From the NCBI GenBank assembly GCA_930986425.1, contig CAKNJR010000005.1, positions 27,638 through 91,637 on the forward strand: a stretch of DNA of 64,000 nucleotides, in the 5' to 3' direction. Positions 59,843-61,000 of the stretch are shown here, piece by piece (within the stretch, counting starts at the first letter, position 1; each line of letters starts with the position of its first letter). Source of the DNA: an uncultured Clostridium sp. GTDB lineage: Bacteria > Bacillota > Clostridia > TANB77 > CAG-508. Under the pieces are notes generated by a model. That model was not told where the DNA came from. It made no database searches and saw nothing but the letters and a program-made list of their open reading frames with translations. The position numbers and the translations under genes were made by a program.

Positions 59843-61000
59843 TTATAAACTACCTATTATGCCGTTTATTATTACTTCTGCATCCTCTATATTACTTAAT
59901 GATGTATTTCTATTTTCCGTTGAATCTAACTTTACTTCAAGTTTTTCTCCATTTTTTCCCAGAGCATTTAAATTAACATTTGGTACTTGGGCAAAATCTC
60001 CATTCAAAATATGTTCGCTGTTTATTTTTATATTATTTGCTATTATATCAATTACTTCTAATAGAGCATTCGCTTCTTCTTGAAAATTTTCTATGTCATC
60101 ATCTGTCATCATTCCTGATTCAACTTGCTCTATTAATTGCTTTTCTGAAGCAAAAATATTAATAAATTGATTTAATGTTTGTTTTGCTATTTCTTGCTTT
60201 GTTTTTTCTAAATCATAGTTTTGGTTAATTATATCATTTGCTGCTGAATAAATTTCAACTAATAGTTCTACCTGACTTAGTTTTGCTCCGCAATAACTTC
60301 TTAACAAATTTATTTGACTTATAGTCTCCTCTATTTTTTGGATATTATTTTCATCTGACACGTTCAAATTATTAATCCCTAAATCCTCTGTTTTACATCC
60401 GTCTATTTGTAATGTCCAATTATAATCATCAATTTCTTCTACAAATGGTGTTTCTAAGAATCCATTTAACAAGTATATATTATCATAAGAGACTGTATTT
60501 GCGACATTATCTATTTCTGATAAGTATTGATTTACTGCATTTTGATGTTCTCCGTTTTCATCATTACTTTGCTTTACTTCAAGCAATTCCATACGTATGT
60601 TTTGTAATTTGCTAAAAATATCACTTAATCCACTTCTAGCTGTATAGAGTAATTCTTGAAGATTTGTATATTTATTAATCATATCTTGATATCGATTTTT
60701 ATCATTCGATATTCCTGCATTTGCATGCTTATCAATCTCTCCAGCCAAATCATTTAAACCTTCTTTTTCTCTTATACCAGCATCCTCGTAAATTTCTACT
60801 GCATCTTTTGCCCTGTTTATTATTCCATTTTGTCCTATTGTTAGGCTTATTGCTATCCCCGCTAAAATTAACAATACAATAATTGTTACGACTAAAGCAA
60901 TTAAAGTTATACCTTTTGTTTCTCTTTTTAATTTTTTTAAGGTAACACTATCTAGTTGATTTTCTTCTTTGTTTCTTTGGTTAACCATTATTTTTTTCAT
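59843..61000 (-). CDS. Flagellin-like (D1-type helices) protein with a type IV pilin-like N-terminal hydrophobic helix
   Basis: 385 aa. N-terminus KRETKGITLIALVVTIIVLLILAGIAISL. Then TARSGLSDIFSKLQNIRMELLEVKQSND...QYLSEIDNVANTVSYDNIYLLNG and ISQINLLRSYCGAKLSQVELLVEIYSAANDIINQ. These align by eye with flagellin N-terminal (TAEGAL..ILQRxREL...EIDRIxxxTxFNGxxLLDG) and C-terminal (RAxLGAxQNRLExxIxNL) conserved blocks. Confidence 0.6.
   Translation of the reverse strand: MKKIMVNQRNKEENQLDSVTLKKLKRETKGITLIALVVTIIVLLILAGIAISLTIGQNGIINRAKDAVEIYEDAGIREKEGLNDLAGEIDKHANAGISNDKNRYQDMINKYTNLQELLYTARSGLSDIFSKLQNIRMELLEVKQSNDENGEHQNAVNQYLSEIDNVANTVSYDNIYLLNGFLETPFVEEIDDYNWTLQIDGCKTEDLGINNLNVSDENNIQKIEETISQINLLRSYCGAKLSQVELLVEIYSAANDIINQNYDLEKTKQEIAKQTLNQFINIFASEKQLIEQVESGMMTDDDIENFQEEANALLEVIDIIANNIKINSEHILNGDFAQVPNVNLNALGKNGEKLEVKLDSTENRNTSLSNIEDAEVIINGIIGSL

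Follow-up and report, generated by a model that had tools for sequence, protein, structure and literature searches.

A flagellin-derived D1 module on a probable type IV pilin of uncultured gut Clostridia

The two great surface filaments of bacteria are built from flagellins and from type IV pilins, which are exported by unrelated machines. The D0 segments of a flagellin carry its export signal and form the filament core, or inner tube. Archaellins are also filament subunits, with a class III signal peptide, a hydrophobic N-terminal helix and processing by a prepilin-type peptidase, and they have no requirement for a glutamate at position 5 (Glu5). Here we describe a gene on the reverse strand of contig CAKNJR010000005.1, from an uncultured Clostridium sp., in which a pilin-type N-terminus is followed by sequence related to flagellin. 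The gene lies in a stretch of 64,000 nucleotides, referred to below as the window, with a G+C content of 29.7%. An earlier, sequence-only reading had seen in it a flagellin-fold protein with a pilin-type signal and helix in place of its N-terminal D0, perhaps the subunit of another kind of filament, and tests of both the flagellin and the pilin half support that view.

Several described systems come close to parts of this architecture. In Streptococcus sanguinis, the modular type IV pilins PilB and PilC bear a vWA module and a lectin module, respectively (Raynaud et al. 2021, PMC8179133; PMC9934059), and a catalogue of 264 architectures lists IPR012902 both with IPR005046 and with IPR005532 (PMC8179133). 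In the known bacterial type IV filaments, Glu5 makes an inter-subunit salt bridge and only the capping subunit of the tip complex is without it; archaellins are related to pilins (PMC10191384). Pilin-like proteins have also been described from TANB77, uncultured low-GC gut Clostridia that are filed at NCBI under Clostridium or Clostridia, and one of them activates dendritic cells via TLR4 (Nat Commun 2024, PMC11680825). Our literature search found no paper on a pilin–flagellin fusion, and the motif GITLIAL, which marks the N-terminus described here, was found in no paper.

We consider it probable that the product of the gene is a modular type IV pilin, with a displayed module derived from flagellin. 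Its parts are as follows.

59843..61000, minus strand: complete coding sequence of 385 residues plus stop, starting at ATG in the open reading frame (ORF) listing; a pilin-type N-terminal module, then a tandem flagellin D1-like cargo
60911..61000, minus strand: leader peptide, residues 1–30, rich in Lys and Arg and ending in ...RETKG, with predicted cleavage after Gly30
60836..60910, minus strand: hydrophobic helix, residues 31–55 (ITLIALVVTIIVLLILAGIAISLTI), equivalent to α1-N of a type IV pilin, with Ile at +1 and Ala at +5
60719..60835, minus strand: residues 56–94, a conserved G-x-N-G turn and an amphipathic helix, from alignment to the operon pilins discussed below
60656..60718, minus strand: variable helical linker, residues 95–115, from length variation in the family and the AlphaFold2 model, in which it joins the pilin helix to the first D1 helix
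60215..60655, minus strand: complete flagellin D1-like domain, residues 116–262, comprising ND1a, ND1b, a β-hairpin (186–197) and the CD1 helix (218–258), from Flagellin_N, the family profile and AlphaFold2/Foldseek
59846..60214, minus strand: second, truncated D1-like repeat, residues 263–385, with no D0 after it, from hhalign and NCBIfam

The flagellin relationship of the cargo is evident at several levels. Pfam Flagellin_N matches the protein in two stretches with 35.9 bits (E = 9.5e-9, gathering cut-off 26.6), the better of them aligning residues 115–180 with profile positions 68–136 of 139. Several NCBIfam flagellin models, with a weak FlgL match among them, match both residues 116–184 and residues 271–367, at scores of 25 bits or less against whole-protein cut-offs of 127–443. 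A phmmer search of 1.84 billion representative proteins with residues 95–385 gave 33 matches. They comprise the query protein, some 15 divergent relatives that are 350–470 residues long, and true, short flagellins with E-values from 1e-6 to 1e-3; the nearest true flagellins come from Firmicutes. The exhaustive HMMER search was needed to reach these relatives, since a word-indexed search with the C-terminal part alone returned near-identical proteins only. A profile built from 12 sequences of the C-terminal region matches flagellins in the PDB with E-values down to 7.5e-39 (Bacillus subtilis flagellin, 5gy2_C), and the match covers ND1a, ND1b, the hairpin and CD1 (profile positions 6–190).

The AlphaFold2 model, computed from a 23-sequence alignment, has a predicted local distance difference test score of 82.9 and a predicted template modelling (TM) score of 0.72. 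It places helices at residues 60–144, 149–169, 218–258, 264–294, 300–323 and 361–384, and the hairpin at 186–197. When this model was compared with the PDB by Foldseek, the top matches were all flagellins, and the best match confined to D1, again 5gy2_C, has a target-normalised TM-score of 0.77 and a root-mean-square deviation of 3.5 Å. As judged by profile and model, residues ~116–262 are a true flagellin D1 domain and the similarity is well beyond chance; generic coiled-coil resemblance is ruled out by the profile matches to PDB flagellins and by the structural matches. The flagellin-like blocks that had been aligned by eye are all present (TARSGL...LLNG at 120–180, LRSYCGAKLSQVELLVEIYSAAND at 233–256 and VIDIIANNIKINSEHILNG at 316–334), and the homology that they were taken to indicate is significant and does not extend beyond D1.

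The family as a whole lacks both D0 segments. Flagellin_N matches among its members begin at profile positions 48–73 of 139; in the window protein the match begins only at position 68, which bears out the earlier claim that the usual flagellin N-terminus is absent. The C-terminal D0, on which that reading was silent, is missing as well. Flagellin_C has no match in the window protein at E ≤ 10 in Pfam, the matches detectable in relatives cover only profile positions 1–45 of 86 and stay below the cut-off, and in the AlphaFold2 model the last element is a short D1-type helix, with no C-terminal D0. Aligned by hhalign, the first and second halves of the family alignment match with 99.5% probability (E = 3.9e-23), which makes residues 263–385 a tandem, truncated D1 copy composed of two helices, a reduced hairpin and a short C-terminal helix. 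This duplicate accounts for the second block that had been seen to follow the first. Family members score more than 300 bits against the family profile and match the full length of the profile, and true flagellins score at most 107 bits and match its first D1 copy only, so that the family is cleanly separated from flagellins. The residue equivalent to B. subtilis Hag R89 in the LQR motif, which we take to be a TLR5 hot-spot residue important for recognition, is Asn in the window protein and varies across the family; TLR5 engagement is thus not supported as a selected function of the cargo, and we set it aside.

The N-terminus is not special to the flagellin-bearing protein and proves to be a lineage-wide module (hereafter the N-module) on hundreds of proteins with other cargo. 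In the window protein it opens with a class III-type leader, MKK...KRETKG30 followed by ITLIALVVTIIVLLILAGIAISLTI, which is positively charged and passes through Gly into hydrophobic residues. The hydrophobic string KGITLIALVVTIIVLLILAGIAISLT that had been read as prepilin-like is indeed there, although at residues 29–54 instead of 27–52, the numbering having been off by two; the Ala that had been placed at +5 is Ala35, counting Gly30 as −1. More than 4,700 proteins found with the full-length protein share only its first ~80 residues. In the sequences examined they follow one pattern, with ...KKxKKQVKG before the predicted cleavage site and ITLIALVVTIIVLLILAGVAxNLTIGQNGIFxRAQxA... after it, and have unrelated C-termini. 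Pfam recognises DUF285/LRR, FGE-sulfatase, LRR_5 and DUF4874 with DUF4832 as cargo behind the module. We take DUF285 and the FGE-sulfatase domain to be the IPR005046 and IPR005532 of the modular-pilin catalogue.

At least 393 N-module sites were confirmed when GTDB representative genomes were scanned with the pattern GIT[LI][IV][AI]L[VI][IV]T; a scan of genome contigs with the single window protein found nothing. The 79 loci that we kept bear the titles of uncultured Clostridia, Clostridium and related clostridial metagenome-assembled genomes (MAGs), except for one Erysipelotrichaceae MAG, and the sample names that show a host refer to human, rabbit, chicken, sheep or roe-deer gut or rumen. 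Among 190 distinct N-modules, Gly−1 is present in 100% and Lys−2 in 73%, Ile+1 and Thr+2 are invariant and Ala+5 occurs in 99%, in a sample that is biased to query-like N-termini and drawn with a pattern allowing only Ala or Ile at +5, so that no Glu5 variant could be found. The hydrophobic run is nearly invariant to +25 behind leaders of 5–45 residues, and a conserved helix face continues past it (G26, N28, G29, A34, A37, A44 and E48, taking the Ile after the conserved Gly as +1). The Pfam N_methyl model gives 12.9–16.8 bits on nine of ten paralogues, all below its cut-off of 21.2 bits, and 12.9–19.6 bits on paralogues and family members overall; one paralogue has a weak GspG match. Only six of 2.9 million viral contigs carry the N-module (L090–L095, IMG/VR), a count on which we rejected a phage origin.

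A single MAG often has several N-module sites, some of them as tandem arrays, which suggests rapid duplication and diversification of cargo. Two arrays may be described individually. One contains three paralogues of ~460 residues (L037:80-4222), and another four of 376–630 residues, of which the one that was scanned has DUF285/LRR repeats (L082:8111-15360).

What ties the module to a pilus is its occurrence on its own. At some loci, ORFs consist of nothing else, with 65–75 residues after the Gly, and clustering of the neighbours of these short genes revealed a conserved operon in seven loci (L016, at 7083-16162, L019, L025, L029, L064, L074 and L087). Hidden Markov models built from the operon genes found it in two more, giving nine loci in related Clostridia MAGs. 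The operon begins with a gene for a ~545-residue protein with no Pfam match, followed by two genes for small membrane proteins, the short N-module gene and an A24-like gene; after these come two further pilin-like genes, two T2SSE ATPases and a T2SSF protein. In L016, Pfam assigns A24_N_bact (105 bits), PilB (T2SSE, 346 bits, with MshEN), a PilT-like ATPase (143 bits) and PilC (T2SSF, 101 bits), and the N-module ORF of ~75 residues directly upstream of the A24_N_bact gene reaches 19.6 bits with N_methyl. The pilin slot is filled by two N-module genes of ~140 residues in L036 and by five tandem genes of ~160 residues in L021 (L021:8912-11517). Regular expressions for PilD (GxGDxK) and PilB (GPTGSGKT) had found nothing in 1.2 Mb, a misleading result given that the operon was later found by neighbour clustering.

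Over residues 24–94, the window protein is 55% identical to the L016 pilin of ~75 residues, taken whole (BLASTP, E = 4e-24), residues 56–94 matching the C-terminal half of the operon pilins and forming the rest of the pilin module. Residues 1–94 therefore amount to a complete copy of a small helical pilin, and by alignment the homology of the N-terminal module with the small pilins in the major-pilin slot runs over their full length. These pilins share its Ile+1 and Ala+5, in the places of Phe or Met and Glu.

The pilin–flagellin fusion is a conserved family of ~15 clusters at 50% identity, and every full-length member keeps the N-module and the same N-terminus. All related records are uncultured gut Clostridia by NCBI naming. 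The identical 385-residue protein is present on 41 public contigs and is therefore no assembly artefact. A true start downstream of the hydrophobic segment is ruled out as well, as the stretch from residue 5 to Gly30 contains no Met and the module is retained by all homologues. In three proteins (P0121, P0129 and P0133) the tandem D1 cassette follows another N-terminus, a signal peptide and a region of ~230–460 residues without a Pfam family, which supports the idea of the cassette as a movable cargo; P0121 has three Flagellin_N stretches. Three longer members (P0144, P0147 and P0150) have a common C-terminal extension that ends ...GELV(F/Y)(V/I)GT(N/D)E(K/D)EK(Q/E)WA..(M/L)(G/D)I.... The family gene stands alone amid housekeeping genes in three lineages; in the 10 kb past each end of the window and around the other family members there are housekeeping genes only, for example those for FtsH, PBP, RsmA, NrdDG and rpoBC. 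No flagellar gene is present in the window and the 10 kb past either end (~84 kb), as had been noted for the immediate surroundings.

If the protein is indeed a modular pilin, it would be inserted into the membrane by the Sec route with its leader on the cytoplasmic side, and a prepilin-type peptidase would remove the leader between Gly30 and Ile31. The PilB/PilC machinery would then extract the hydrophobic helix and pack it with major pilin helices of nearly the same sequence, so that the bulky rod formed by D1 and its duplicate D1′ would be displayed on the pilus, probably at its tip, or else as a minor subunit that is sparsely present, by analogy with S. sanguinis PilB and PilC. A protein with a pilin signal at its N-terminus cannot be exported by the flagellar type III system; this bypass would explain how D0 could be lost, and its loss at both ends is what would be expected of a protein whose export and polymerisation are free of the flagellar apparatus. 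The role of the cargo is most likely binding, be it adhesion or a host or partner ligand, which is the common theme of modular pilins.

A number of observations weigh against this modular-pilin reading. N_methyl scores only 14.9 bits on the window protein, below its cut-off of 21.2, and the residue at +5 is Ala35 and not Glu, as it is in nearly all N-modules including the operon pilins. No pilus genes were found in the 64-kb window or the 10 kb past either end, and none near the other flagellin-like family members. In the A24-like protein of the operon, a GID(K/L)E motif and the Zn-finger region at the N-terminus are retained; it lacks a Peptidase_A24 match even at E ≤ 10, and it carries (T/S)YE where Pseudomonas aeruginosa PilD, which we take as the comparison for this position, carries GxGD. 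Cleavage by this protein is therefore only putative, and either its processing chemistry may be altered or the peptidase may be encoded elsewhere. Finally, the MAGs that have the operon are distant kin of the genome in the window, the few housekeeping proteins that they share being 45–59% identical.

Four of these observations (Ala5, the A24-like protein without GxGD, the lack of nearby pilus genes and the distance of the MAGs) make a membrane anchor, the other possibility raised in the earlier reading, a serious rival. On this account the N-module only holds the protein in the membrane, uncleaved or cleaved but retained, with the D1–D1′ rod outside and never part of a pilus, much as in archaeal sugar-binding proteins whose signal peptides are of class III. 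A 25-residue hydrophobic helix behind a Lys/Arg-rich N-terminus would suit an anchor, as would an Ala at the place of Glu5, an A24-like protein with no recognisable catalytic domain and the absence of pilus genes near the target or its homologues; for the many paralogues with enzyme-like cargo (FGE-sulfatase, DUF4874/DUF4832), surface display would suffice. We nevertheless judge it unlikely, as it leaves three things unexplained: an invariant Gly−1 alongside leaders that range from 5 to 45 residues, the near-invariance of 25 hydrophobic residues and the conservation of a helix face reaching ~+60 across unrelated cargo, and the proteins of ~75 residues that consist of the N-module only and sit in the pilin slot of a PilB/PilT/PilC operon.

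Less probable again is a more far-reaching version of the pilus reading, in which an atypical type IV filament, with neither Glu5 nor GxGD in its A24-like protein, would serve as a general scaffold to display dozens of cargo modules, and the flagellin-derived subunits would coat or extend the core of pilin helices through the D1–D1 packing surfaces that they retain. If this were true, the fibre would be a chimera, its interior that of a pilus and its exterior flagellin-like, and flagellin epitopes could reach the host from a non-flagellated commensal.

We regard it as highly unlikely that the protein is an ordinary Sec substrate, with the hydrophobic segment as a long signal peptide that signal peptidase I removes (AGIA or SIS would be possible sites to cut after), and with its rod released or associated with the wall. 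Gram-positive signal peptides can be long, and small residues do follow the hydrophobic core (...LAGIAISLT...). Against this, conservation continues well past such a cleavage site (G26 to E48, as listed above), through a stretch with its homologue in the mature part of the operon pilins, and the hydrophobic stretch of ~25 residues is enough to span the membrane. That the protein is a true flagellar component, a flagellin or an FlgL-like junction protein with a mis-called start and type III export, can be dismissed in spite of the above-threshold Flagellin_N match and the weak FlgL and flagellin matches in NCBIfam, since it is already contradicted by the missing D0 (a Flagellin_N match beginning at position 68 of 139, no Flagellin_C or CD0) and by the conserved N-module, which is in every homologue with no conserved alternative start past the hydrophobic helix, and since the NCBIfam scores fall far under their cut-offs, ~84 kb around the gene hold no flagellar genes and the family profile separates members from true flagellins.

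Candidate signals for expression flank the coding sequence on both sides.

61113..61141, minus strand: promoter-like site, TAGACA, a 17-nt spacer and TACAAT, with TG ahead of the −10 hexamer; ~113 nt upstream of the start codon
61007..61012, minus strand: Shine-Dalgarno-like AGGAAG, 7–12 nt upstream of the ATG, read from the sequence
59734..59772, minus strand: perfect, AT-rich 17-nt inverted repeat with a T-run at its end; arms 59734–59750 and 59756–59772, 100% complementary

The promoter-like site, of the extended −10 type, has 10 of 12 consensus matches and comes from a consensus scan only; such sites are not enriched over shuffles in this AT-rich region. The inverted repeat begins 71 nt past the stop codon and is probably the terminator of a monocistronic unit. 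Together with the promoter-like site and the Shine-Dalgarno-like motif it makes the gene look monocistronic. Beside the target, at window positions 61254-61886, lie an HTH_26 (XRE-type) gene on the plus strand and a DUF6809 gene on the minus strand. The HTH_26 gene is divergent from the target across a 254-bp spacer and may be a local regulator; the arrangement of these genes is conserved on other contigs.

Elsewhere in the window, a block of same-strand genes at 30242-46799 is of the kind that encodes conjugative type IV secretion systems (T4SS) in Gram-positive bacteria. It includes a VirB4-like ATPase (42346-44298), a VirB2/TrbC-like pilin (45991-46368), a weak, sub-threshold PrgI/VirB3-like match (45523-45975), two larger proteins with weaker T4SS_pilin matches, an NlpC/P60-like protein and a 1052-residue protein with an α/β-hydrolase domain. 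Genes for a large serine recombinase (Resolvase and Recombinase), a Mob_Pre relaxase and a transglutaminase-like protein at 18858-24257, beside the secretion genes, together resemble a mobilisable or integrative element. The stretch at 1577-17852 encodes three giant surface proteins, paralogues of 1760, 2244 and 1269 residues. The first and third were scanned and contain DUF11, the 1760-residue protein also SpaA, and the 3′ parts of the giant genes seem to be almost identical, as antisense ORFs are repeated at equal distances from each stop codon. A sortase gene lies at 55631-56356.

On the modular-pilin reading, part of the flagellum appears to have found a new use as the cargo of another surface fibre, the core domain of flagellin having moved from the flagellar type III pathway to a pilin carrier. 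Neither D0 nor a flagellum would then be needed for D1 to fold and function. The pilin module of the lineage is a helix of ~65 residues common to hundreds of cargo proteins, and the pilus of these abundant, uncultured gut Clostridia may thus be a general means of display. The pilus system itself appears to depart from two canonical type IV features, Glu5 and GxGD, and Ala5 pilins and a GxGD-less A24-like protein together challenge two textbook requirements of type IV assembly. D1 is the part of flagellin that is recognised by host TLR5, and a pilus-displayed D1 in a gut commensal could have immune effects; since the key Arg is not conserved, an effect on the host is speculative.

Of the known systems, the bacterial flagellins (B. 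subtilis Hag and that of Roseburia hominis; PDB 5gy2 and 9hpz) share with the window protein a D1 that is homologous in sequence and predicted fold. They differ from it in having both D0 segments, a D1 that is not duplicated in tandem, and a flagellar gene context. The cell-surface flagellin homologue of Sphingomonas sp. A1 (PDB 2zbi, 3k8v and 3k8w) is matched by the family profile with E ~3e-29, and 3k8w is listed by Foldseek. It is reportedly a precedent for use of the flagellin fold outside motility; its architecture is that of a normal flagellin, with no pilin-type N-terminus, and the organism that it comes from is Gram-negative. Archaellins resemble the window protein in their class III signal and hydrophobic N-terminal helix, processing being predicted in our case. 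Their heads, however, are unrelated to bacterial flagellin, whereas the head here is a bacterial flagellin D1, no archaellin family is among the Pfam matches of the window protein at E ≤ 10, and the operon in its relatives is of the bacterial PilB/PilT/PilC type. The TANB77 pilin-like proteins have the same plan of a short cytoplasmic region, one transmembrane helix and an outside domain; unlike the operon described here, their cluster is annotated with a CpaF-family (Tad-like) ATPase and pilins of 143–236 residues, and the paper does not mention flagellin (PMC11680825).

The closest likeness is to the modular type IV pilins, which also combine a class III-type N-terminus and pilin helix with a grafted domain not specific to pilus biology, and which also occur as many paralogues with differing cargo. 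The window protein differs from them in its cargo, a tandem flagellin D1; the flagellin entries IPR001029 and IPR001492 were not found in the available portion of the modular-pilin catalogue's text (PMC8179133). It differs also in its Ile+1, its Ala+5 in place of Glu and its sub-threshold N_methyl match, and in a pilin module of ~65 residues that is helix only, like the small pilin of the operon. In place of a globular α/β head, the model predicts that a single helix (residues 60–144) runs into D1. Modular type IV pilins are already known as a class; what appears new here is a flagellin-derived cargo on a protein that is probably such a pilin.

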